Below, in pieces: positions 286-57,797 of a stretch of DNA of 64,000 nucleotides (the stretch's first letter is position 1; every line of letters starts with the position of its first letter). This DNA comes from Clostridiales bacterium. Its GTDB lineage: Bacteria; Bacillota; Clostridia; Christensenellales; JAISNN01. The notes below the pieces were generated by a model. It was not told the DNA's origin. It worked only from the letters and a program-made list of their open reading frames with translations, and ran no database searches. Where the stretch lies: NCBI GenBank assembly GCA_031276195.1, contig JAISNN010000053.1:38896-102895 (forward strand), in the 5' to 3' direction. The translations under genes were made by a program, and so were the position numbers.

Positions 286-3200
286 TTAACCGATATCGTC
301 GAAAGCCTCTTTCGTTACTCCGTATACCACCGTACACCCGCTCCAATTCCAATCGCTTGCCCAACTTGATTTTATCTCGTTCTCGCTCGCTTCCGTATAA
401 ACCGTCAAGTTATCCTTGCAATCCCGGAAAGCGAAACCCTCGACTTTGGTTACGGTTTTCGGAATATAGATTTTCGTTAAAGAGGTGCAACCCGTGAACG
501 TATTACCGTAGATTGTCGTTACTTTGCTCGGAATATTGATTTCCGTCAACCCCGAACAACTGTGGAACGCGCCGCCGCTGTTCGCGCCGCTTCCGATCTC
601 CGTTACGCTCTCGGGAAGAGTGATTTTCGTCAAACTTTTACAGCCGCTGAACGCCGCGTTACCGATCGTCGTTACGCCGTCCGGAATATTGATCTCCGCC
701 AAGTTCGAACAACCGATAAACGCCTGCTCTCCGATCTCCGTTACTTTTTCGGGAAGCGCGATTTCCGTCAAACTTTTACAGCCGCTGAACGCGCCGTATT
801 CGATTACCGTTACGCTTTCGGGAATTGTGATTTTCTCCAAACTTTCACATCCCGTGAACATACCTCTGTCCACTTGCGTTCTGCCCTCTTCAATTATGAC
901 TTCTTTCAAGTTTTTGCAGCCGCCGAACACGTGCGTTTCGAATTCGACGTCTTTCGGGATCGTGATTTTCTTCAAACCGTCGCATCCCCCGAAAGCCGAC
1001 GCTCCGATCGTCTTTACGCCGTTTGGAATTGCGAATTCTTTCAAGCCCGCGCCGTGGAACGCGTTTTCTCCGATCGTCGTTACGCCGTCGGGAAGACTGA
1101 TTTCCGTCAGACCCGAACAACCGTAGAACGCATACTTTCCGATTTCGGTTATGCCGCCGGAAATTTCAACATTTGTCAAACTCCCGCAGTTATAGAAAGT
1201 GTAGTCCTCGATTTTCGTCATTCCGTCGGGAATTTTGATATCGGTCGTCAAACTCTTGCAATCCTTGAACGCCTTTTCCCCGATCGACGTTATATTGTCT
1301 TTAATGTCGATCGTTTTCAAATCCGTACAGCCCTCGAACACGCTCGCGGCGATTGCCGTTACTTTTTCGGGGATTGTGATGCTCTCCAAACTCACGCAGT
1401 TCATAAACGCGGCGGGTTGGATATCCGCGACGCTATCCGGGATATTTATTTCCTTTAAATTTTTACAGTCATAGAACGCCGAACTTCCGATTGACGTTAC
1501 TTCGCCTGAAATTACGACCTTCGTCAAGCCCGTACAGCCAAGGAACATGGCGGGGCTGATTACCGTTACCGCGCTCGGGATTGTGATTTCCGTCAAGCCC
1601 GTGCAGAAACCGAACGCGATAACGCCGATCGACTCTACGCCGTCGGGGATTACGATCTTTGTCAAGCCCGCGCAGCCGTAGAACGTATTGTTCTTGATTT
1701 CGGTTACGCCTTTCGGAATATTAATTTCTTTCAAGCCCACGCAGCCGTTAAAAGCGTTTCCACCGATTGCCGTTACGCTGTCCGGAATGTCGAGCGCGGT
1801 CAAGCCCTCGCAGCCCCAAAACGCGCCCTCTCCGATCGACTTTACGCCGTTGGGGATTATGATCTTCGTCAAGCCCGCGCAGCCTTTGAAAGTATTGTCG
1901 CCGATTGCCGTCGCGCCGTCCGGAATTTTGATCTCCGTCGTCAAGCCCGCGCAGTCGTTGAACGCGCCCTCTCCGATTTCGGTTAAGTTTTTAGAGAGAT
2001 CGACCGACTCCAATTTCGCGCAGCCGTTGAAAGCGTAATTCCCGATTTTTTCCGCGCCGCCGTTGATATTGACCGATTTCAATTCGGAGCAATAGGAGAA
2101 CGCTTCCTCGCCGATTTTTTCCGCGCCGCCGGGAATGTCGACCGTCTTTAAACTCGTGTTAAAATAGAACGCTTTCTTGCCGATTTCGACCGCGCCGCCC
2201 TCGATTGTAATTTGCTCTAATTTTGGGCAGTTAGCGAACGCCTCCTCGCCGATCGTTCCCGCGTTCCCGTGAATTGCGACCGCCGTCAAGTCCGTTGTTA
2301 TATAGAACGCTTGATGTCCGATTTCACCTACGTTTCCGAAAATCTCAACCGTCGTCAAGCCCGTGCAAAAGGCGAACGCGCTCGCGCCGATTCTGTTCTT
2401 ATCGCCGTAAATCACGACCTTTTTTAAGCCGCCGTTATAGAAGGTAAAGTCCTTAATTTCCTTCACGCTTTCGGGAATTTCGATCGAAGTAACGTCTTTT
2501 CTGTGTCCAAAACTAACGTCGTCTATTCCCGTTACGGGCTTGCCCAAATATACCGCCGGGATAATTATATCTCCCCCCTCGCCGCCGCAATACATAACGT
2601 ATCCGTTTCCGTCCTCCGATTCGATATAGGGCAATAACGTAAAGTTAATGCTTGCGACCGCCTCCTCCATACTTTCAAGCGCGGTGTTATAAGCCGTTTC
2701 GATCGCGTCCGAACTATCCGCCGCCTCGATATTCGCGATACCTCTTGCGTGAGCCGCGTTCAACGCGTTAAGCGCGGACTGATCGAACCCGATATTCTCC
2801 GTCAGCGACTCGTCATACCGCTCGTTCAGACTCTTTGTATACGCCGCTTTTAGCAAAGCCAGCAATTTCGGCTTTTCCGCATCGACATCGACCGCGATCC
2901 ATTTCGCGGCAAAAATCAGCGTTTCGCCCGACGCGCCGTCCGCGTAGCCTCCGCTCTCGAATTCCCAGCCGCCGAATATGAAACCGTCCTTTGAGGGCGC
3001 GGAAGGATATTTTATTTTCTCTCCCTTTTTGACGGATATTTGATATTTCGCCTCGCCGTCCACGGTAAAGACGACGGTATAACCCTCGTTTTTGATCTTT
3101 TCCTTTTCGTAATAACTTCCGCCCCACGCGCCGGCGGCGAGAGAAATAGCGGCCAAAAGGATCAGCCCGACGAAGGCGGTCAAAATCCTGCCCCCTATCA

Positions 3201-3501
3201 CTCTGCGCGGAAGAATTTGAGTTTTAGTATCCGCCGTTCCCTTGCGTGAAAGAGGTTGAGTTTGAGCGTCCGGTATTCCGCGCGGTTGGACGTCCTCCGT
3301 TCCCCTCCGTTGAAGGGATTGGGGCGAAACAACCGTTTTCGGCGCGGCGGGATCACGCGGCGTAATTTTCGGCGCGGCATACGACGAAGGTTCGGGCGGC
3401 GCATAGACGAAGCCGCGCGAAATCAGACCCTTTACGTTCGGCGCGGTGTTGTAATCTCCTTTGCCGAACGCCGCACGGCTTGACGTATCGATATCTTTCA
3501 T
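286..3501 (-). CDS. BspA-type leucine-rich-repeat surface protein (Pro-rich N-terminal tail, single TM anchor, Listeria/Bacteroides-repeat-like beta domain, long LRR array)
   Basis: 1071-aa ORF. A ~23-aa unit (I.IP.gVt.IG..AF.gC..L) is iterated about 30 times. Hydrophobic anchor ILTAFVGLILLAAISLAAGAW follows a P/K-rich N-terminus. YTVVFTVDGE...GWEF motif precedes the LRRs. Confidence 0.8.
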   Translation of the reverse strand: MKDIDTSSRAAFGKGDYNTAPNVKGLISRGFVYAPPEPSSYAAPKITPRDPAAPKTVVSPQSLQRRGTEDVQPRGIPDAQTQPLSRKGTADTKTQILPRRVIGGRILTAFVGLILLAAISLAAGAWGGSYYEKEKIKNEGYTVVFTVDGEAKYQISVKKGEKIKYPSAPSKDGFIFGGWEFESGGYADGASGETLIFAAKWIAVDVDAEKPKLLALLKAAYTKSLNERYDESLTENIGFDQSALNALNAAHARGIANIEAADSSDAIETAYNTALESMEEAVASINFTLLPYIESEDGNGYVMYCGGEGGDIIIPAVYLGKPVTGIDDVSFGHRKDVTSIEIPESVKEIKDFTFYNGGLKKVVIYGDKNRIGASAFAFCTGLTTVEIFGNVGEIGHQAFYITTDLTAVAIHGNAGTIGEEAFANCPKLEQITIEGGAVEIGKKAFYFNTSLKTVDIPGGAEKIGEEAFSYCSELKSVNINGGAEKIGNYAFNGCAKLESVDLSKNLTEIGEGAFNDCAGLTTEIKIPDGATAIGDNTFKGCAGLTKIIIPNGVKSIGEGAFWGCEGLTALDIPDSVTAIGGNAFNGCVGLKEINIPKGVTEIKNNTFYGCAGLTKIVIPDGVESIGVIAFGFCTGLTEITIPSAVTVISPAMFLGCTGLTKVVISGEVTSIGSSAFYDCKNLKEINIPDSVADIQPAAFMNCVSLESITIPEKVTAIAASVFEGCTDLKTIDIKDNITSIGEKAFKDCKSLTTDIKIPDGMTKIEDYTFYNCGSLTNVEISGGITEIGKYAFYGCSGLTEISLPDGVTTIGENAFHGAGLKEFAIPNGVKTIGASAFGGCDGLKKITIPKDVEFETHVFGGCKNLKEVIIEEGRTQVDRGMFTGCESLEKITIPESVTVIEYGAFSGCKSLTEIALPEKVTEIGEQAFIGCSNLAEINIPDGVTTIGNAAFSGCKSLTKITLPESVTEIGSGANSGGAFHSCSGLTEINIPSKVTTIYGNTFTGCTSLTKIYIPKTVTKVEGFAFRDCKDNLTVYTEASENEIKSSWASDWNWSGCTVVYGVTKEAFDDIG

Positions 3502-3527
3502 ATTAAAATCTCCTGTTTATGATATTG

Positions 3528-3776
3528 TTATAAATTTTGTATAAGGACAGCCCTCACTCTCCAAACCTTTTTTGCAATTTTGTATGAGGTATTGTCCGCG
3601 TAAGATTTAAGCCGCCGTATTTACGCTTTTTCGGACATCCCCCCGCGTCCCAAACCTTTTTTTGTAATTTTGTATGAGGTATTGCCCGCGTAAGATTTAA
3701 GCCGCCGTATTTACGCTTTTTCGGACATCCCCCCCGCGTCCCAAACATTTTTTTGTAATTTTGTATAAGGATAGCC
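3528..3776. repeat. ~88-bp tandem direct repeat (about 2.5 copies) upstream of the LRR gene
   Basis: CCAAACCTTTTTTGYAATTTTGTATGAGGTATTGYCCGCGTAAGATTTAAGCCGCCGTATTTACGCTTTTTCGGACATCCCCCC is read twice in full, with partial copies on both sides. Confidence 0.85.
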
Positions 3777-3882
3777 TTTCAACCTTTATTTTACCTTTGT
3801 TTTTCAATTTTGAAAGCGAAACGGTATTAAGACTATCCTTGACAAACCTTTTACTTTGTTACTATGATTGAACGCCGTCCGT

Positions 3883-6800
3883 TTACCACAACGTCGGAAC
3901 TCCTCCCACATCGCGCCAACAACCCGCCTTTTCGATATCGGAATAATAATATATATTGCCGGTAAAGCCGTTGTTCCAATTAGCGTTCCACCCGTCGGAC
4001 GAACCCTTAATGTAAATCGTCAAATTGTCGCAAGCCCAAAACGCTTCGACTCCGATTTTCGTTACGCTCTCTGGAATTATGATCTCCGTCAACGCTACGC
4101 AATTCGAGAACGCATAATTTCCGATTTCATCCAAACCTTCGGCAAGATTGACCGTCGTTAAAGAGGTACAGCCCCAGAACGCCGAGATCCAAATATATTC
4201 TACGCTTTGCGGAATCGTGATCTCCTCCTTCAACGCCGTACAACCATAGAACGCATACGCCCAAATCTCTTCAACGCCGTCGGCAATAGTAACCGATGAC
4301 AAATTAGTGCAATTCTCAAACGCGCTTGATCCGACTATTTTTACTGTGGAGGGAATTAGAATCTCCGTCAATCCTTTTTGACCATAGAACGCGAAATCAC
4401 CAATTTTCGTTACGCCGTTCGGAATTATAAAATCGTTCGCCTTTGTTTCGGGACAGAATATCAGTTCAGTTTTTGCTTTGTTATACAAAACTCCGTCCTC
4501 GGACGCATAGTAATTATTGTTTATGTCAACGTTAATACTATCCGCTCCGCAGCCGCCGAACGCGCCATACGAAATATTCGTTACTCCGCTGTGTATGTCG
4601 ATTGCCGTCAAGTTTTCACAGCCCCTGAACGCCCATGACCAAATATATGTTACGCCGCTCGGTATTGCAAAACGATCCGCCCTCTTTCCCGCGGGATAGC
4701 ATATCAGTTCGGTTTTTGCTTTGTTATACAAAACTCCGTCTTCGGACGCATATTTTGGGTTCTCTTTGTCAACGGTAACGCTTTCTAACGAAGCGCAATC
4801 CGTAAACACGCGATTCCCGATTGCCGTTACGCCCTTATGGATCGTGATCGAAGTCAAACTCTTGCAACCCTCGAACGTTGAGAAAGGAATTGCCGTTACA
4901 CCGTCGGGTATTTTTGTGACCGAAGTCAATTTTTCGCAGCCGTAGAACGCATTTCCGTTTCCGCCGAGTGTCGTCAAACCTTCGGGAAGATTGATCGTCG
5001 TCAATTCCTTGCATTCGTAAAACGCGCGCGTTTCAATCTTTGTCAAACTTTCCGGAAGAGTAACGGTTTGCAACGCCGCGCAACCCTCAAACGCCCCGTT
5101 GTGTATTCTCTCTATGCCTTCGGAAATTATTACCGTCTTTAAATTCGTACAATTCTTAAACGCGTTGTCCCAAACCGTCCCCGGTCCGCCGTCTCTGTAT
5201 GAACCTACGATTCCCGGAATTGTGATAGATTCCAATTTTGAACAGCCAAAGAACGCTTCCTTATTGATTCTGTCCAAGCCTTTTGACAGTTTGACCTCCG
5301 CTAAACTTACGCAATACTTAAATGCGTAATACCCGAGTTCGGTTACGCTGTCGGGAATTACGATCGCCTCCAATTTTGAACAACCGTAAAACGCGCTCGC
5401 GCCGATTTTTTCCAAACCGTCGGCTATATTCACCGTCGTCAACTCATAGCAATACCTAAACGCGCCCTCCCCGATCGTTTCCGCGCCTAATATATCGGCT
5501 TTCGCCAACGTTATGCAATACTCGAACGCGAGATCCCCGATGGTTTTCACGCTTTTCGGGATTGCGATCGATTTCAATTCCAAGCAATTCCAAAACGCCT
5601 CTTTCCCGATCGTTTCCAACCCTTCGGAAAGATTGACCGCCGTCAAGCCCTCGCAATACTCGAACGCGTAATTCCCGATCTCTTTTACGCTTTCCGGAAT
5701 TGTAATAGATCCCAAATTCAAGCAATTCCAAAACGCGTTCGCGCCGATTGTTTCCACGCCGAAAGGAATTTCAACGGACGTAATATCCGCGTTCAAAAAT
5801 CCTCCGTCCGCGATTTTCACAACCTTTTTGCCCTTGTAGAGCGCGGGGATTATAATCTTTGTATCAACCGCGCTTCCGTAAGAAACCTCATAGCCGCCCG
5901 CGACCTCCGTATATGCCAGCCCGTCGGAGAATACGCTTTGAACCGCCTCCATTTCCGCGACCGCAGCGTCCGCCGCCGCCATTAATTCGTCGAGCACCGT
6001 TTCGCCGTACGCGTCCGCCCCGTCTATATATTTTACCGCCGCTTCAAAAATCGCCGTCAACGACGCCAACTCCGTCTCGGTATAACTCCCGTCCCCGATT
6101 AATTCGTCGTATTTATCTTGCAATATCGCTTTCATCTGCGCTTTGACCAAACTAACTCTCGCCGAATTATCCTTGACCCAAACCGCTTCCAGCGTCAAAT
6201 CTCCCTTCACCTTGCCGTCGGCAAGCGGCGCGCCGCTCACGAAGACCCAGCCGTCGAATATAAAGCCGTCTTTGGCGGGATCGGCGGCGGGATATTCTAT
6301 TTCCGCGCCGTTTTTGATTTTCGCCGTATAATATTCCGCTCCGTCGACCGTAAAGACGACGGTATATTCCGCGTTTTTAATCTTTTCACTCTCTATGTAG
6401 TTTCCGATCAACGCGCCCGATACCATAGAAATAAATACCAAAAGGATCAAACCCGTCAAGACCGACGCCGCCTTTACTTTTTTTCCGAACTCCGCCGGAT
6501 CAAACGGCTTTTTAGGTTTTTTAGGCTTAATCGGCTTAATAGGCTTTTCGGCGGCCGCAAGTTTCGGCGCGCTTTGCGTAGACTTAGCCGCGCTTTGCGT
6601 GGGCTTAGCCGCTTTCGGCGCGGAATTCAATTCGGCTTTCGGTTCCGCTTTCGGCGCGGCTTCCGCTGGTTTCGGCGCGGCCAAATCCCGCGAAACGGTC
6701 TTCGGCGGCGCGGCTTTCGGCGGCGCGTAGGACGACGGTACGGATTTCGTATATACTAAATTACTCCCGACCGCCGAAGGGATTTCCACGCCGTTCGTCG

Positions 6801-6998: not shown

Positions 6999-7400
6999 TT
7001 GCCGTATTACCTTTTTCCGTTTATCTTTTCGTTTTTCGGCTTATTTTTTCCTAATCGTTTTTCCGTCGTATTATCTTTTTCCCCTTTGTTTTTTGTTTTT
7101 GGTTTATTTTTTCCTAATCGTTTTTATATCGTATTACCTTTTTCCGTTTGTCTTTTTGTTTTTCGGCTTATTTTTTCCTAATCGTTTTTCCGTCGTATTA
7201 TCTTTTTCCCCTTTGTTTTTTGTTTTTGGTTTATTTTTTCCTTAATCGTTTTTCCGTCGTATTATCTTTTTCCCCTTTGTTTTTTGTTTTTCGGTTTATT
7301 TTTTCCTTAATCGTTTTTCCGTCGTATTATCTTTTTCCGTTTGTTTTTTTGTTTTTCGGTTTATTTTTTCCTAATCGTTTCTTATTGTATAATCTTTTTG
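6999..7400. repeat. T-rich tandem repeat, unit ~60-65 bp, about 6 copies
   Basis: CGTATTATCTTTTTCCCCTTTGTTTTTTGTTTTTGGTTTATTTTTTCCTAATCGTTTTTCCGT is reiterated with small variations. The ORFs called here are low-complexity artefacts. Confidence 0.85.
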
Positions 7401-7530
7401 CTCTTTGCTTTTTCATTTTTTACGCTTGTTTATCCACGATTAACCGCTTACTTTTCTATCGTTCCGCCTTTTATATTTATCAATTTTTCGTTTAATTTTT
7501 TCACGTTTTTCCGCCTTTTTTGCGGATAGT

Positions 7531-34015: not shown

Positions 34016-34090
34016 GAAAACGAGAAGCGTTAGTAAAGCAAAAAGCGTTAGTAAAACAAAAAACGGAAGGGCTAAATATAGACGGCTTTA

Positions 34091-34417
34091 TACGCCATAG
34101 CCAACTCTATACGCCGCAACCAAAATTCCCCTCCGCAGGAGGGGTGTAGGGGTGGGGCGACCGAATAACGAATTCCGTACGTCATAACCAACTCTATACG
34201 CCGCAACCAACTCCATACGTCATAACCAAAATTCCCCTCCGTGGGAGGGGTGTAGGGGTGGGGCGACCGAATAACGAATTCCGCACGTCATAACCAACTC
34301 TATACGCCGCAACCAACTCCATACGTCATAATCAAAATTCCCCTCCGTGGGAGGGGTGTAGGGGTGGGGCGACATTATTATAATTCAGCAACCAAAATTC
34401 CCCTCCGCAGGAGGGGA
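34091..34417 (+). repeat. Hairpin plus G-tract repeat family, 4 cores, ~118-bp period
   Basis: AAAATTCCCCTCCG(T/C)(G/A)GGAGGGGTGTAGGGGTGGGGCGACCGAATAACGAATTCCG...CATAACC is reiterated. Confidence 0.9.
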
Positions 34418-36080: not shown

Positions 36081-36348
36081 AATTCCCCTCCGTGGGAGGG
36101 GCAGGGGTGGGGCGAACTTCCCTTATTATCCTTATATTCCCCTCCGTGGGAGGGGATCAAAGGGGTGGGGCGAACTTCCATCACTTTCCTTACATTCCCC
36201 TCCGTGGGAGGGGATTCAAGGGGTGGGGCGAACTTCCCTTATTATCCTTATATTCCCCTCCGTGGGAGGGGATTCAAGGGGTGGGGCGAACTTCACTCAT
36301 TATCCTTACATTCCCCTCCGTGGGAGGGGATCTAAGGGGTGGGGCGAC
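36081..36348 (+). repeat. Hairpin plus G-tract repeat family, 5 copies, ~59-bp period
   Basis: Unit ATTCCCCTCCGTGGGAGGGGAT(T)CAA(A)GGGGTGGGGCGAACTTCCCTTATTATCCTTAT. Confidence 0.95.
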
Positions 36349-39715: not shown

Positions 39716-39924
39716 AAATTCCCCTCCGTGGGAGGGGATAAAAGGGGTGGGGCGGTCTCTCTTTACCCTTATATTCCCCTCCGTGGGAGGGGTCAAGGGG
39801 TGGGGCGAACTTCCCTTATTATCCTTACATTCCCCTCCGTGGGAGGGGATCTAAGGGGTGGGGCGAAACTTCCCTTATTATCCTTACATTCCCCTCCGTG
39901 GGAGGGGATCAAGGGGTGGGGCGG
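39716..39924 (+). repeat. Hairpin plus G-tract repeat family, 4 copies
   Basis: CCCCTCCGTGGGAGGGG(A)T(C/A)(A)AAGGGGTGGGGCG cores with a ~58-bp period. Confidence 0.95.
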
Positions 39925-40019
39925 ACTCTCTTATTTTCCGCAAAATCCCTCCGTTCGGGATAATAAAAAAAGCGTATTTAAACGCCGCAAAGTTACTAAA
40001 AGTTTTTGAAAGAGGGCGC

Positions 40020-42261: not shown

Positions 42262-42344
42262 TATAACAAACTCTTAGCGTTTCTCAAACCGTTTTACACG
42301 CCCTTTCTTAAAATCCGCCCTTAGTTTGCAATTTTTTCCCCGTT

Positions 42345-42665
42345 ATTTTAGGATTTCCGTATTAATCCGCCTTTTTTCTCGCCGTCGTTTTAGAATTCCG
42401 TATTAATCCGTCTTTTTTCTCCGTCGTTTTAGAATTCCGTATTAATCCGTCTTTTTTCTCCGTCGTTTTAAAATTTCGCTTTAATCCGCCTTTTTTTCTC
42501 CGTCGTTTTCAAATTTCGCTTTAATACGCTTTTTTTCTCCGTCGTTTTAGAATTCCGTATTAATCCGTTTTTTTCTCCGTCGTTTTAAAATTCCGTATTA
42601 ATCCGTCTTTTTTCTCCGTCGTTTTAAAATTTCGCTTAAATCCGTTTTTTTCTCCGCTATTCTGA
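42345..42665. repeat. ~40-bp tandem repeat, about 8 copies, in the clpC-comEC spacer
   Basis: Unit TCCGTATTAATCCGTCTTTTTTCTCCGTCGTTTTAGAAT with variants. Confidence 0.9.
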
Positions 42666-45470: not shown

Positions 45471-45800
45471 TCCTTATATTCCCCTCCGTGGGAGGGGTAG
45501 GGGTGGGCGAATCCTCTCACTTTCCTTATATTCCCCTCCGTGGGAGGGGATCAAAGGGGCGGGGTGAAACTTCCCCCACTTTCCTCATATTCCCCTCCGT
45601 GGGAGGGGATCAAAGGGGTGGGGTGAAACTTCCCCCACTTTCCTCATATTCACCTCCGTGGGAGGGGATCCAAGGGGTGGGGAGAAACTTCCCCCACTTT
45701 CCTCATCTTCCCCTCCGTGGGAGGGGTAGGGGTGGGGCGACACTTCCCCCACTTTCCTCATATTCCCCTCCGTGGGAGGGGATCAAAGGGGTGGGGCGAC
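45471..45800 (+). repeat. Hairpin plus G-tract repeat family, 6 copies
   Basis: CCCCTCCGTGGGAGGGG...GGGG(T/C)GGGG...ACTTCCCCCACTTTCCTCATATT units with a ~58-bp period. Confidence 0.95.
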
Positions 45801-52789: not shown

Positions 52790-53040
52790 TTTGTTAGGCG
52801 GAATTTTTTATAGTATTTTTTTTGTTATACGGAATTTTTTATTATGTTCTTTGTTTTATTCCCGAATTTTTTATTATGTTCTTTGTTTTATTCCCGAATT
52901 TTTCATTGCGTTCTTTGTTTTTATTCCCGAATTTTTTATTGCGTCCTTTATTTTATTCCCGAATTTTTTATTGCGTCCTTTGTTTTATTCCCGAATTTTT
53001 CATTGCGTTCTTTGTTTTTATTATGTCTTTTATTTTTATG
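52790..53040. repeat. ~33-bp tandem repeat, about 7 copies
   Basis: Unit TTTGTTTTATTCCCGAATTTTT(T/C)ATT(A/G)(T/C)GTTC. Confidence 0.9.
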
Positions 53041-53100
53041 CCGTATACCCGACTCCATATCCTTTTAAAAAGTTGAGATTAAGAGTGTAAGTCCGTCCTC

Positions 53101-53255
53101 AAATTCCCCTCCGTGGGAGGGGCAAGGGGTGGGGCGAAACTTCCCTCACTTTCCTTATATTCCCCTCCGTGGAATGGGATCAAAGGGGTGGGGCGAAACT
53201 TCCCTCACTTTCCTTATATTCCCCTCCGTGGAATGGGATCAAAGGGGTGGGGCGA
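53101..53255 (+). repeat. Hairpin plus G-tract repeat family, 3 copies (2 with a disrupted hairpin arm)
   Basis: Copy 1 is CCCCTCCGTGGGAGGGG. Copies 2-3 are CCCCTCCGTGGAATGGG. Confidence 0.95.
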
Positions 53256-53462
53256 ATTTACCCGACGCTTCCAAGTGCGGGGCGTTTATATAACGCATTA
53301 TATCATACTTATATAACGTTTTTAGCGGTACTATACCGCGAAAAACAATCCGTACGGCAAGGCGCGCGGTATTATCAAAAAACTCTCGTTCCCATAATAA
53401 AAAACACCTTTTCCTCGCGGTACTATACCGCGAAAAACGTTATATAAACGCCCTACGATACG

Positions 53463-56400
53463 TCAAGCGAAATACTTCACTCCGTTTTTAAACAAATCCC
53501 CGTTCTTATCGCCGTAAACATTCTTATAAAGCCCATCGCCCGTCCTTTCGTTATGCCCCATTTTGCCCAAAATCCTTCCGTCGGGGCTGCACAAGGCTTC
53601 GACCGCCATAACCGATCCGTTCGGATTAAACTCGCCCAGCATAGTGGGATTTCCGTCGAGGTCGGCATACTGCGCGCAGATCTGCCCGTTTTCGATCCAA
53701 TTTTTCACGAGATTTTGCGGCGCGGCGAGTCTGCCCTCTCCGTGGCTCATGGCGGTATAGTGAATATCGCCCGGCTTAAAGCCGTAAAACCAGGGCGATT
53801 TATTCGACGCGATTCTGACGGGTACGATTTTCGCAACGTGCCGTCCGATCGCGTTATAAGTCAGCGTCGCCGAGCCTTCGTTTTGCGGAGTGATTTTTCC
53901 GTTCGGCACAAGTCCGCTTTTTATGAGGGCTTGAAAGCCGTTGCAAACGCCGAGGATCAGCCCGTCCCGCGCCAAAAACTCGTTTATCGCGTCTGCGGTT
54001 TTGGCGTTTCTTATGACGTTCGCGATATATTTCGCGCTCCCGTCCGGTTCGTCGCCCGCCGAGAAGCCGCCGGGGAACATAATTATCTGCGCGCTTTTGA
54101 TCTCTCGCACGAGATTGTCGATCGACTCTTCGATGACCTTAGGGGAGAGCGTGCGGAATATCGGAACGGACACTTCCGCTCCCGCGTTTAAGAACGCGCT
54201 TTCCGAATCGTATTCGCAATTCGTCCCGTAAAAGGCGGGTATAACGACCTTTGGTTTTGCGTATTTAAAAGCAGCGAACGACGGTTCCGCCGTAAAGTTG
54301 ACGGGAACGACGTTGCGTCCCAAGTCTTTTTTGCTCGGGAATACGCTCTCGAAAGTCGAACGATACGCAAGGAGAGCCTCATCCCGTTCGATTTTTTCCC
54401 CGTTGATCTCCATATATCCGCTTTCCGTCGTGCGTCCGATTTTGAGCGCGCCCGGAAAGTCTATCTCGTCTTTGGACTCGGCGGCGATCGCGCCGTAACG
54501 GAATTCAAAAAGCCCGTCCGCGTCGAAATTCACCTCGAATCCGATCCCGTTTCCGAACGACATTTTCGCCAACGCTTCGCCGACGCCGCCGAATCGAACC
54601 GCCGCCGCCGCCGATATGCTCCCCTTTTTAATTCTTTCCGTAATTTCCGAAAAGTTATCTTTCAGCCTTTCAAAATCGATGATTCCGCAGTCGTCTGAGG
54701 GCGCGGAAAAGAGGTATATATTCCGTCCCGCCTTTTTGAATTCCGCGCTTATTACGTCGTCCGTATTCACGGTTTTGACGGCGAAACTGATGAGCGTAGG
54801 GGGTACGTCTATATTTTTAAACGTGCCGCTCATAGAGTCCTTGCCGCCGATAGAGGGCAATCCTAAGGCTTGCTGCGCGGCATACGCCCCGAGCAGGGCG
54901 GCAAGCGGTTTACCCCATCTTTTTTTGTCCGTTCCGGGTTTTTCAAAGTATTCCTGAAAGGTGAAGCGTATTCCCGAAAAGCCCGCGCCGGCGGCTACGA
55001 TTTTCGCGGCGGACTCGACGACGGCATACAGCGCGCCGTGAAAGGGCGACCGCTCCGAAAGGTACGGATTATAGCCGTAGGCGGCGATACTCGCGGTTTT
55101 AGTCCGGCCCCTTACGGGCAGTTTTTGAACCGAAACGTCCGCCGGAGTCTCCTGATATTTCCCTCCGAACGGCATCAAAACCGTGGACGCGCCGATCGTA
55201 TTGTCAAACGTTTCGACCAATCCTTTTTGGCTTGCGACGTTGAATTGAGCGAGATTTTTCAAGAATTTTTCCTTTATATTTCCATTTAAATTCCGCGGTT
55301 CTATACCGCCGTTTTCGGAATACGCGGAATCCGAAAAACGTCCGTCTTTCTCACCGTCTATTCCGCCCCCCGAATTCAAAAAGCGTCCGTCTTTCTCACC
55401 GTCTATCCCCGTCCCCGAATTCAAAAAGCGTCCGTCTTTCGCGCCGTCTATTCCCGTCCCCGAATTCAAAAAGCGTCCGTCTTTCGCTTTCCTTATTTCA
55501 AAAGCGGGATTCAAAAACAACCCGTTTTTCGGCGTTCCGTTTTCCTCCTCCGCGTTCGGAAACGCTCCGTCCTTCGGGGCTTCGATTTCCGCCGCGACGC
55601 GCGCCCGAACGCCGTTCGTATTCAAAAAGTCGCGTCTGAGGTCCACGATCGGTTTTCCGCCGTATTTCATTTCGAGCCGTCCGCCGCCCGTTATTTCGGC
55701 GACGACGTCCGCCTCCAAATTTTCCTCCGCGGCGAGCGCGATAAACCTTTCCGCGTCGGCTTTATCGGTTACGACGGCCATACGCTCCTGCGATTCTGAG
55801 ATTGCGAGTTCCGTTCCGCTCAGCCCGTCGTATTTCGTCGTAACCTTATCGAGGTCGATTTTTATGCCGTCCGCGAGTTCGCCGATCGCGACGCTGACGC
55901 CGCCCGCGCCGAAGTCGTTGCATTTTTTAATCAACCGCGACGCGGCGGGATTTCTAAACAGCCGTTGAATTTTTCTTTCTTCGGGCGCGTTGCCCTTTTG
56001 GACTTCGGACGCGCTTTTTTCGGTGGAGAGGGCGTCGTGTTCTTTGCTGCTTCCCGTCGCGCCGCCTATGCCGTCGCGGCCGGTGCGTCCTCCCAATAAG
56101 ATCACGACGTCGCCCGGGGAGGGTTCTTCGCGTCTGACGTTTTCCGCTTTCACCGCGCCCGCGACAAAGCCGGCCTCCAATCTTTTCGCCGTATAGCCCT
56201 CGTGGTAGATTTCGCTTATATGCGTCGCGGCGAGTCCGATTTGATTTCCGTAAGCGGAAAAGCCTTGCGCCGCCTTTTTGGTTATGACGCGCTGAGGGAG
56301 TTTGCCCTCGATCGCGCTTGAAACGGGCGCGGTTGGGTCGCCCGCTCCGCTCACTCTCATAGATTGATAGACGTAGGCGCGCCCCGAGAGCGGGTCGCGG

Positions 56401-57797
56401 ATCGCGCCGCCGATACACGTACTCGCGCCGCCGTAAGGTTCGATCTCCGTCGGGTGGTTATGGGTTTCGTTTTTGAACTGCAAGATCCATTTTTCGACGC
56501 CGTTTTCCGTTTCCGCGTCGACGTAGAGCGAGCAGGCGTTGACCTCTCCCGAGACTTCGATATCGTTCAGCCGTCCGTCTTTCCGCATCTCCTTTCCGCA
56601 TACGGTAGCCAGATCCATAAGGGTTACCGCGCGGTTTTTCTCCTTATCGCCGTATACGTTTTTGCGGCTTCTTATATAGTTTTCGTAAGTTTTTTTAAAC
56701 AAATCGCCGTATTTTCCCTTTGGAAATTCGATTTCGGCGATCTCCGTCTCGAAAGTCGTATGGCGGCAATGGTCGCTCCAATAGGTATCGAGGACGCGTA
56801 TTTCGGTTTCGGACGGGTCGCGTCTTTCGATATTTTGGAAATACTTTTGAATGAAAGCCAGGTCCGCGGTATTCATAGCCAGCCCCATATTCTTTTTCAT
56901 CCCGTCCAATCCCTTGACGGACAACCCGTTAAAGCCCTTCAAGACGGGTACGGCGCGATCCGCGCGCGCGCTTTTGGGCGGTTCGAGGACGAAGAGATTT
57001 TTTTCGCGGCTTTCGATGGGGTTTATGACCTGTTTTTTGATAAATTCGAGATCGGACGGGCTGATTTTCCCTTCCAAAACGAAGAGTTTACCGCTCTTTA
57101 TGACGGCGTTGCCGTCGGGACGGATCAAACGCACGCACTGCTCCGCGCTGTCGCCCCTTTGGTCGTACTGCCCGGGCAAAGACTCGACCGCAAAAAAGAC
57201 CTTTCCCCTCAAATCGACGGCATTTTTTGACAATCCGCCCTTACTTCCGTCAAGCCGCTCCCCTTTGGAATAGTTTTCTCCGTTTTCGTTATGAATTTCA
57301 CCGATTTTTTGCCCTTTTCCGGCATAATTTCCGCCGTTTTTTAGTCCGTTTTCAACGTAATTTCCGCCGTTTTTTGCTCCGTTTTCAACGCAATTTTCAC
57401 CGTTTTTTATACATTTTTCGGTATAATTTTCACAGTTTTTCAGCCCGTTTTCAACGCAATTTTCACCGCTTTTTATACCTTTTTCGGCATAATTTTCACC
57501 GTTTTTTTGATTATTTTCGACGCAATTATTCCCGTTTTTTACCGATTTTTCCGCGTTAAGCGCACTTCCGTCCAAAATAATTCCGTCCGTGTACAAAATA
57601 TCCGCGGGCGGTTCCGAAAATACCGTATCGCAAGCGGCTTTAAAAACGTTCTCATCGATATTAAAAACGTCATAAATATTAATAACGCGAACGGCTTCAA
57701 GCCCCTCGATATTCAAAACCGACTTAAAATTCTCCGTCAAACCCGCCGCTTCGACGTCAAAATTCTCCTTTTTCTCAACAAAAACCCTGTAATTCAA
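53463..57797 (-). CDS. purL: Phosphoribosylformylglycinamidine (FGAM) synthase, single-chain type, with two in-frame repeat insertions; TTG start
   Basis: N-terminal PurS-like region (FVEKKENFDVEA...), LPGQYDQRGDSA, AIR-synthase-like repeats, C-terminal GATase (GVCNGFQ, ..HGEG). 1444 aa. Confidence 0.9.
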   Translation of the reverse strand: MNYRVFVEKKENFDVEAAGLTENFKSVLNIEGLEAVRVINIYDVFNIDENVFKAACDTVFSEPPADILYTDGIILDGSALNAEKSVKNGNNCVENNQKNGENYAEKGIKSGENCVENGLKNCENYTEKCIKNGENCVENGAKNGGNYVENGLKNGGNYAGKGQKIGEIHNENGENYSKGERLDGSKGGLSKNAVDLRGKVFFAVESLPGQYDQRGDSAEQCVRLIRPDGNAVIKSGKLFVLEGKISPSDLEFIKKQVINPIESREKNLFVLEPPKSARADRAVPVLKGFNGLSVKGLDGMKKNMGLAMNTADLAFIQKYFQNIERRDPSETEIRVLDTYWSDHCRHTTFETEIAEIEFPKGKYGDLFKKTYENYIRSRKNVYGDKEKNRAVTLMDLATVCGKEMRKDGRLNDIEVSGEVNACSLYVDAETENGVEKWILQFKNETHNHPTEIEPYGGASTCIGGAIRDPLSGRAYVYQSMRVSGAGDPTAPVSSAIEGKLPQRVITKKAAQGFSAYGNQIGLAATHISEIYHEGYTAKRLEAGFVAGAVKAENVRREEPSPGDVVILLGGRTGRDGIGGATGSSKEHDALSTEKSASEVQKGNAPEERKIQRLFRNPAASRLIKKCNDFGAGGVSVAIGELADGIKIDLDKVTTKYDGLSGTELAISESQERMAVVTDKADAERFIALAAEENLEADVVAEITGGGRLEMKYGGKPIVDLRRDFLNTNGVRARVAAEIEAPKDGAFPNAEEENGTPKNGLFLNPAFEIRKAKDGRFLNSGTGIDGAKDGRFLNSGTGIDGEKDGRFLNSGGGIDGEKDGRFSDSAYSENGGIEPRNLNGNIKEKFLKNLAQFNVASQKGLVETFDNTIGASTVLMPFGGKYQETPADVSVQKLPVRGRTKTASIAAYGYNPYLSERSPFHGALYAVVESAAKIVAAGAGFSGIRFTFQEYFEKPGTDKKRWGKPLAALLGAYAAQQALGLPSIGGKDSMSGTFKNIDVPPTLISFAVKTVNTDDVISAEFKKAGRNIYLFSAPSDDCGIIDFERLKDNFSEITERIKKGSISAAAAVRFGGVGEALAKMSFGNGIGFEVNFDADGLFEFRYGAIAAESKDEIDFPGALKIGRTTESGYMEINGEKIERDEALLAYRSTFESVFPSKKDLGRNVVPVNFTAEPSFAAFKYAKPKVVIPAFYGTNCEYDSESAFLNAGAEVSVPIFRTLSPKVIEESIDNLVREIKSAQIIMFPGGFSAGDEPDGSAKYIANVIRNAKTADAINEFLARDGLILGVCNGFQALIKSGLVPNGKITPQNEGSATLTYNAIGRHVAKIVPVRIASNKSPWFYGFKPGDIHYTAMSHGEGRLAAPQNLVKNWIENGQICAQYADLDGNPTMLGEFNPNGSVMAVEALCSPDGRILGKMGHNERTGDGLYKNVYGDKNGDLFKNGVKYFA
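55285..55590 (-). repeat. In-frame ~45-nt tandem repeat inside purL ((A/E)KDGRFLNSGTGIDG, about 4 copies)
   Basis: The DNA unit AAAAAGCGTCCGTCTTTC(T/G)C(A/G)CCGTCTATTCC(C/G)... and the peptide unit are both visibly reiterated. Confidence 0.9.
57213..57572 (-). repeat. In-frame 33-nt tandem repeat inside purL (KNGENCVENGx, about 9 copies)
   Basis: The peptide reads KNGNNCVENNQ KNGENYAEKGI KSGENCVENGL KNCENYTEKCI KNGENCVENGA KNGGNYVENGL KNGGNYAGKGQ ... Confidence 0.9.

Follow-up and report, generated by a model that had tools for sequence, protein, structure and literature searches.

In-frame tandem-repeat arrays in the sole purL gene of a Clostridiales bacterium: probable coding minisatellites in a repeat-laden genome

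The stretch of DNA considered here (the window) is 64,000 nucleotides of contig JAISNN010000053.1 from a Clostridiales bacterium. It carries on its minus strand purL, the gene for a single-chain phosphoribosylformylglycinamidine (FGAM) synthase. Two tandem direct repeats, one with a 33-nt and the other with a 45-nt unit, are inserted in frame into this gene, and both are absent from orthologues outside a small clade. We consider it quite probable that they are coding minisatellites, that is, tolerated disordered loops that arose by local duplication and were filtered for frame. Taken alone, an insert of this kind in purL would be an ordinary tolerated loop. The notable part is the surrounding genome, in which similar arrays are found in about one gene in six, and it is this genome-wide context that decides how the purL inserts are to be read.

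The purL frame is open throughout its 1444 codons. Its product scores 1698 bits against TIGR01857, the model for single-chain FGAM synthases (cut-off 1057), and the match consists of three stretches separated exactly at the two inserts. A Pfam search recognizes the domains FGAR-AT_linker, AIRS_C and GATase_5 and matches no family within either insert. The gene and its inserts are laid out as follows (coordinates are those of the window):

53463..57797, minus strand: purL, single-chain FGAM synthase, 1444 aa, TTG start (TIGR01857, Pfam, fold match)
53469..54257, minus strand: glutamine amidotransferase domain, aa 1181-1443, uninterrupted (PF13507 at 1.9e-74)
57210..57572, minus strand: insert 1, 33-nt in-frame array with decayed edges, aa 76-196 (unit register, absence from insert-free orthologues, model confidence)
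57276..57539, minus strand: the eight clear 11-aa units of insert 1, aa 87-174 (array detection, unit register, lag-33 identity)
55284..55574, minus strand: insert 2, 45-nt in-frame array with decayed edges, aa 742-838 (array detection, unit register, model confidence, TIGR01857 break)
55350..55484, minus strand: three near-identical 15-aa units (KDGRFLNSGTGIDGE), aa 772-816, the young core of insert 2 (unit register, lag-45 identity)

In the 13- and 39-sequence alignments that we built, this PurL retains every invariant residue. Invariant in both are C1285, H1415 and E1417 of the glutaminase domain (presumably the expected catalytic triad Cys1285/His1415/Glu1417) and the synthetase motifs DHCRHTTF, NHPTEIEP and GGRTGRDG. 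The assembly is a metagenome-assembled genome (MAG) of 2.27 Mb in 93 contigs, 94% complete. A search of all of it for a second purL, or for a split purL/Q/S set, returned nothing beyond this purL; the family search used also finds matches in control genomes with split PurL. Both purM and purF are present. Since this is the only purL, the pathway is represented and the invariant residues are kept, the enzyme would seem to be intact and apparently required, and the gene looks like a working one rather than a pseudogene. A preliminary description of the window, made from its letters alone, had held that the insert is tolerated in frame by an essential enzyme, and had named a decaying gene beside a second intact purL as the finding that would overturn it; the former view is borne out and the latter situation does not exist here. 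Two long antisense frames, 57227-57559 and 56364-57230 (both plus strand), run over the repeat. They are a side effect of the purine richness of the sense strand and do not point to genes.

That description had placed a 33-nt repeat insertion of about 120 aa near the N-terminus of PurL, and this is what we find at aa 76-196. The motifs SEPPADILYTDG and VFFAVESLPGQYDQRGDSA are both in the translation, some 120 residues apart; in insert-free orthologues only about 10-12 residues lie between them, in agreement with the earlier statement that they are nearly adjacent in single-chain clostridial PurLs. Tandem Repeats Finder (TRF) reports 33 nt x 7.5 copies at 57296-57541 with 72% matches and zero indels, together with super-periods of 66 and 99 nt. 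At a lag of 33 the identity of the insert with itself is 0.714, compared to 0.323 +/- 0.028 (maximum 0.437) in 5000 shuffles (z=14), and at the neighbouring lags of 30-32 and 34-36 it is 0.31-0.47. The array is real, far beyond chance. The number of units had been put at nine or so, of the form KNGENCVENGx. Eight are clear, and they alternate between the KNGENCVENGx type and a KNGENYAEKGI type; the remainder are decayed units that flank the clear ones on both sides. The coding strand of the insert is A-rich (A 0.445), and the unit-to-unit changes are 5 synonymous and 14 non-synonymous. Of its five cysteines, three stand at unit position 6, where Cys alternates with Tyr (TGC/TAT), and two are within one unit. 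Searched against the genome, the DNA of insert 1 gives weak matches only (65-79%, low-complexity or compositional) to arrays on nine other contigs, and its peptide resembles repeats in open reading frames on C32 and C89.

Insert 2 was missing from the preliminary description. TRF finds 45 nt x 3.5 copies at 55327-55485 with 91% matches. Placed in register, the insert consists of about six 15-aa units, of which the central three are near-identical and the outer ones decayed. Identity at lag 45 is 0.761 (z=15.5 against shuffles). The TIGR01857 match is interrupted here between profile positions 616 and 625, and a search of the genome with the DNA of insert 2 gave no further match.

Where the inserts fall in the protein was judged from an AlphaFold (AF2) model of residues 1-1200, built on the 39-sequence alignment. 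The model is of moderate overall quality (mean predicted local distance difference test, pLDDT, 67.8; predicted template modelling score 0.68), its folded domains are mostly well predicted, and it matches human PFAS, Salmonella PurL and Thermus PurL with E-values of 1e-35 to 5e-39. Residues 78-188 and 749-834 have a pLDDT of 22-38 and zero secondary structure; low pLDDT serves here as a proxy for disorder. The conserved catalytic loop at aa 570-612, though not an insert, is also of low confidence. The N-terminal domain has two PurS-like halves, each a beta-alpha-beta-alpha-beta unit (residues 3-69 and 200-266), and insert 1 falls exactly between them:

57585..57797, minus strand: first PurS-like half, aa 1-71, beta-alpha-beta-alpha-beta (AF2 strands E3-9, E33-45 and E66-69, helices H15-26 and H49-58; pLDDT 78-90)
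56928..57209, minus strand: second PurS-like half, aa 197-290, same topology (AF2 strands E200-206, E232-243 and E263-266, helices H213-225 and H247-257)

Insert 2 separates the two halves of the synthetase domain, at the junction that also parts the two aligned blocks of Thermus PurL. Both inserts are thus most likely disordered, solvent-exposed linkers. The surface exposure proposed earlier for the first of them is likewise what the model favours: with a pLDDT of about 25 and no predicted secondary structure, it sits between well-folded PurS-like halves.

The closest proteins in a large collection are P0003 (1349 aa), P0004 (its N-terminus lost at a contig end) and P0007 (1339 aa), followed by a set of 1240-1242 aa from 'Clostridiales bacterium' MAGs. 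In the alignment P0003, P0004 and P0007 all carry an insert at site 2, and P0003 and P0007 one at site 1 as well; P0007 has a third insert at another position. Inserts at both sites are absent from the 1240-aa proteins and from all more distant ones in the alignment, where site 1 is occupied by 10-12 residues and site 2 by about 7, instead of about 121 and about 97 here. We found no orthologue with an equivalent non-repetitive domain, which had been named as another observation that could overturn the earlier claim. Five of the nine genus-level proteins aligned are insert-free (P0005, P0006, P0008-P0010). They are 67-72% identical to this PurL outside the inserts, compared to 55-58% for the insert-free FGAM synthases of the Leptotrichia/Sebaldella group, and all of these enzymes have the domain order and all invariant residues in common with it. 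In whole-genome searches the purL frame has 1250-1265 codons in four congeners and 1346 in G005.

The four insert-bearing proteins form one clade in a maximum-likelihood tree (support 98/97), within which PurL is about 70% identical and the known full lengths differ (1444, 1349 and 1339 aa). The site 1 units of this PurL, P0003 and P0007 look related (GGNY/GEIY/GGIY cores), with different copy numbers. At site 2 the amplified segment itself differs, being of the ENGGIEP type in P0004 and KDGRFLNSGTGIDGE here. Judging from these alignments, the sites appear permissive, with arrays that turn over and a sequence that is not conserved. The homologous insert of P0003 contains no Cys. Because of this, and of the Cys/Tyr alternation within the array, the 'periodic Cys' to which the preliminary description drew attention is better seen as drift than as a motif; the near-neutral pattern of changes (5 synonymous, 14 non-synonymous) speaks the same way. 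At 90% identity the protein cluster of this PurL contains this sequence alone. A metagenome scan with very general patterns matched only distant PurLs, and a scan of genome contigs returned no close relatives. Among the sequences retrieved, L004 (CALDJN010000082.1, from an uncultured Anaerocolumna sp., an unrelated Lachnospiraceae MAG) has a purL match at 1545-5582, about 4040 nt long in comparison with about 3700-3800 in most others, and this gene may have insertions of its own.

Throughout the assembly TRF detects 1517 non-overlapping arrays, which occupy 11.9% of the bases. Identical settings give 0-1.2% in samples of 27-130 kb from five congeners, and tandem repeat makes up 0-0.7% of 17-20 kb stretches from five order-level relatives; the load is 10-30 times that of the congeners. 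Among the arrays well inside long open frames, 335 of 392 have a period divisible by three. Outside long open frames the three residue classes of the period are equally represented (362/366/397). By a crude gene map, 247 of 1543 genes, or about one in six, have an in-frame array; the coding fraction is only 0.75, and the share of tandem repeat is 26% in intergenic DNA and 5.6% in coding DNA. Setting aside leucine-rich-repeat and collagen-like proteins leaves 300 arrays in 242 open frames, and N, E, G, K and A abound in these arrays. When 18 of the longest repeat-bearing frames were run against NCBIfam, 16 matched ordinary enzyme or transporter families; of the other two, one matched a leucine-rich-repeat adhesin family well under cut-off and one was unmatched. 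The matched frames, and further repeat-bearing genes, are:

Replication, repair and cell division (NCBIfam): AddA, AddB, FtsK, RecJ, DNA polymerase I, PriA
Protein and tRNA processing (NCBIfam): Lon, TrhP/U32 peptidase
Transport (NCBIfam): Ca-ATPase, CopA
Metabolism (NCBIfam): LacZ, glycogen phosphorylase, aconitase-family hydratase, glycosidase, acyl-CoA synthetase, GlmS
C91:6843-9437 (L123): GlmS, 865 aa compared to a 607-position profile, with two in-frame arrays of 33-nt units, in which E, K, G, I and Cys are abundant
C48:20840-23572; C82:25511-27814; C13:29519-32314; C86:14175-17192; C49:426-3035; C67:7755-15202: the repeat-bearing replication and repair proteins PcrA, MutL, PolA, RecJ, PriA, AddA and AddB

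MutL, with two arrays, and PcrA are thus also insert-bearing. The PcrA frame is 936 aa long, compared to 792-827 in congeners, and about 87 aa of it fall between positions 100 and 101 of the profile. Inserts in proteins of replication and repair could have helped to bring about the repeat burst or could have resulted from it. The match levels of the arrays spread from about 60% to 100%, 57 of the 1517 being at 99% or above. Since array ages spread so widely, the repeat-forming process has run for a long time, and it may still be active. The arrays in purL are typical of those in the genome at large.

Divergence between the units is near-neutral. In 214 indel-free in-frame arrays, the mismatches between adjacent units are divided among codon positions 1, 2 and 3 as 0.30, 0.33 and 0.37, and the corresponding shares in non-coding control arrays are 0.33, 0.33 and 0.34. 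Among single-base codon differences in the in-frame arrays, 35% are synonymous; unweighted random changes would give 22%. Constraint on the repeat peptides is weak, far below the level of a folded domain.

If our reading is correct, the following course of events can be suggested. A local duplication would have affected a short stretch of a permissive linker between subdomains. Replication slippage or unequal exchange would then have lengthened and shortened the resulting array, and a change would have survived only if it was a multiple of three bases. The decayed edges around younger cores fit such a history, as do the privacy of the units and the lack of inverted repeats. The resulting loop would be hydrophilic and disordered, with an abundance of Asn, Gly, Glu and Lys, and would be situated between folded subdomains and leave catalysis intact. 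Insert 1, with units about 72% alike, would be the older and apparently common to the sister lineages by descent; the young core of insert 2 (91%) would be private to the species. Neither would have a dedicated function, and both would be the local outcome of a genome-wide, largely species-specific burst of tandem repeats. What the data show directly is the repeat structure, the kept frame, the predicted disorder and its place in the protein, the restriction to one lineage, the load across the genome and the near-neutral divergence of the units; slippage as the generating mechanism and the absence of function are what we infer.

Several observations weigh against this account. The synonymous fraction of 0.35 is above the expected 0.22, so some peptide constraint exists. 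At site 1 an insert has persisted across a clade in which PurL is only about 70% identical, and it could have been kept for a reason. No loss of repair genes that might lie behind the burst was found among MutS, MutL, XseA, PcrA and RecJ, all of which are present in open frames; their loss as the cause is ruled out. (A RecQ-family match above cut-off is lacking in all six genus genomes searched, G000-G005, and an absence that is genus-wide cannot explain a species-specific trait.) A further point is the composition of the arrays. The purine fraction of the sense strand is 0.607 for arrays in genes, compared to 0.546 for all genes together, and spacer arrays between co-directional genes are just as purine-rich on that strand (0.614; above 0.5 in 488 of 590). 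Examples in the window are:

7003-7413: purine-rich intergenic array
42332-42656: purine-rich intergenic array
52832-53018: purine-rich intergenic array

Selection at the protein level is unable to account for the bias of these intergenic arrays. Plain slippage does not predict it either, and it hints at a directional process. Such a process has been proposed for Borgs, extrachromosomal elements found in Methanoperedens whose amino acid tandem repeats (aaTRs) are the subject of Schoelmerich et al. 2023 (PMC9879509). A dedicated, strand-directed process of repeat formation might operate here too, the purL inserts being its by-products on A-rich seeds. Besides the purine and A richness of coding and non-coding arrays alike, with insert 1 at 44.5% A, this would agree with a load so far above that of the congeners in spite of the repair genes listed, and A-enrichment, the rule of three and disorder are all held in common with Borg repeats (PMC9879509). 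However, we identified no candidate machinery; match levels of 60-100% show that the arrays differ widely in age and are not all recent; and gene orientation and GC skew are confounded in the strand bias, only 61% of arrays following the gene strand where gene direction and local skew disagree. The bias of coding strands could also be explained by selection for hydrophilic codons. As an explanation of the purL inserts we therefore regard such a process as unlikely. A bolder form of the idea, to which we would give slightly more room while still doubting it, is that a strand-directed process such as has until now been proposed for Borgs alone is active on this chromosome and continually builds new disordered regions into core enzymes, PolA, PcrA, RecJ, PriA, AddAB and MutL included. 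If true, the process could be read from the purL arrays, which would be its record and not passive scars of slippage.

Very unlikely, in our opinion, is a function in PurL for which the insert was selected, be it as a flexible tether, as a redox or metal site based on Cys, or as a tag for assembly or condensation. One could point to the five Cys of insert 1, several of them regularly spaced, to the retention of an insert at the same site across the subclade, and to the slight genome-wide excess of synonymous change. Yet the insert of P0003 has no Cys, and Cys alternates with Tyr within the array itself; length and sequence differ among sister lineages, with different segments amplified at site 2; five of the genus-level relatives do without inserts; no family is matched and disorder is predicted; and similar N/G/E/K-rich repeats occur in dozens of unrelated enzymes. 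A Cys-based metal or redox motif in particular is rejected, as the Cys positions are not conserved in orthologous inserts. The weak DNA matches of insert 1 on nine contigs and the similar peptide repeats on C32 and C89 might suggest instead a mobile in-frame element, resembling either Rickettsia palindromic elements (RPE) and repetitive extragenic palindromic (REP) sequences or an intein. These matches are of low complexity or compositional and not copies of one element, however, and insert 2 has no other copy in the genome. Neither insert has inverted repeats or a hairpin, there are no intein or endonuclease domains, and internally we see a head-to-tail array with decayed edges. Because the units are private and inverted repeats are lacking, a dispersed mobile element is excluded as the origin for practical purposes; we would give it next to no weight. 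Hardly more credible is an artefact of assembly or a decaying pseudogene. Tandem repeats are admittedly error-prone in assembly and this is a metagenome-assembled genome in many contigs, but units with 72% and 91% matches are too diverged to be collapsed or duplicated reads, inserts occupy the same sites in P0003, P0004 and P0007, which are independent metagenome proteins, and a genome-wide preference for periods of three inside open reading frames cannot stem from assembly errors. A pseudogene, for its part, would not be expected to keep 1444 open codons and all invariant residues while being the sole purL of a genome in which the pathway is present. Coding minisatellites therefore remain the reading that we prefer.

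Two other features lie close to the gene. One is a terminator-like hairpin, and the other is a member of a dispersed family of 59-nt tandem repeats with a GC hairpin and G-runs (core CCCCTCCGTGGGAGGGG...GGGGTGGGGCG). This family recurs at many loci, unlike most arrays of the genome, and one of its arrays is just downstream of purL:

53411..53437, minus strand: terminator-like hairpin just past the purL stop codon (consensus scan, pattern match only)
34089-34373: 59-nt family array
36082-36347: 59-nt family array
39718-39939: 59-nt family array
45471-45796: 59-nt family array
53096-53256: 59-nt family array

This species and its sisters offer a natural contrast for studying what triggers minisatellite bursts in prokaryotes. 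The contrast could show how far essential enzymes can be loaded with disordered sequence. It could also show whether the purine bias of the sense strand reflects a mechanism in common with Borg elements. There is also a warning for annotation: long low-complexity stretches in the proteins of this lineage are real and not frameshifts.

We know other examples of genomes and elements with repeats of a comparable kind. For Ehrlichia ruminantium (Collins et al. 2005 and Frutos et al. 2006, as summarised in PMC10710844) a low coding ratio is described that results from long intergenic regions of expanding and contracting tandem repeats; our genome shares the low coding ratio and the repeat-filled intergenic DNA. 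The process is described there as targeting non-coding regions, whereas in our genome about one gene in six has an in-frame array. E. ruminantium is an obligate intracellular member of the Rickettsiales, while our bacterium appears to be an anaerobe of the Clostridia, either free-living or from the gut. A eukaryotic analogue can be found in Plasmodium falciparum, whose genome is 81% A+T and whose insertions are mostly homopeptides. Hydrophilic, low-complexity, Asn-rich stretches with A-rich codons are tolerated there in otherwise conserved enzymes (e.g. PMC7534687). Our genome differs from it in having 45.5% G+C and true minisatellites with units of 11-15 aa.

The closest described system is the aaTRs of Borgs. 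The purL arrays show what one would ask of coding minisatellites, namely a direct repeat at the DNA level, units of 3n, absence outside the lineage and, in the model, predicted disorder. They differ from Borg repeats, which are mostly perfect and recent, belong to extrachromosomal elements of archaea, occur by preference in extracellular and membrane proteins and are almost without Cys (PMC9879509). The arrays of our genome, by contrast, have diverged (60-100% matches), are part of a Clostridia chromosome, affect cytosolic housekeeping enzymes and include Cys; instead of perfect or near-perfect units we find 72% matches in insert 1 and 91% in insert 2, and in the genome as a whole few arrays (57 of 1517) reach at least 99%. 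Nevertheless, the two systems have much in common: pervasive tandem direct repeats, both intergenic and in open reading frames; units divisible by three within those frames; enrichment in A; a high degree of genome specificity; and units rich in K/E and other residues that promote disorder, which make new disordered regions that homologues lack (PMC9879509).

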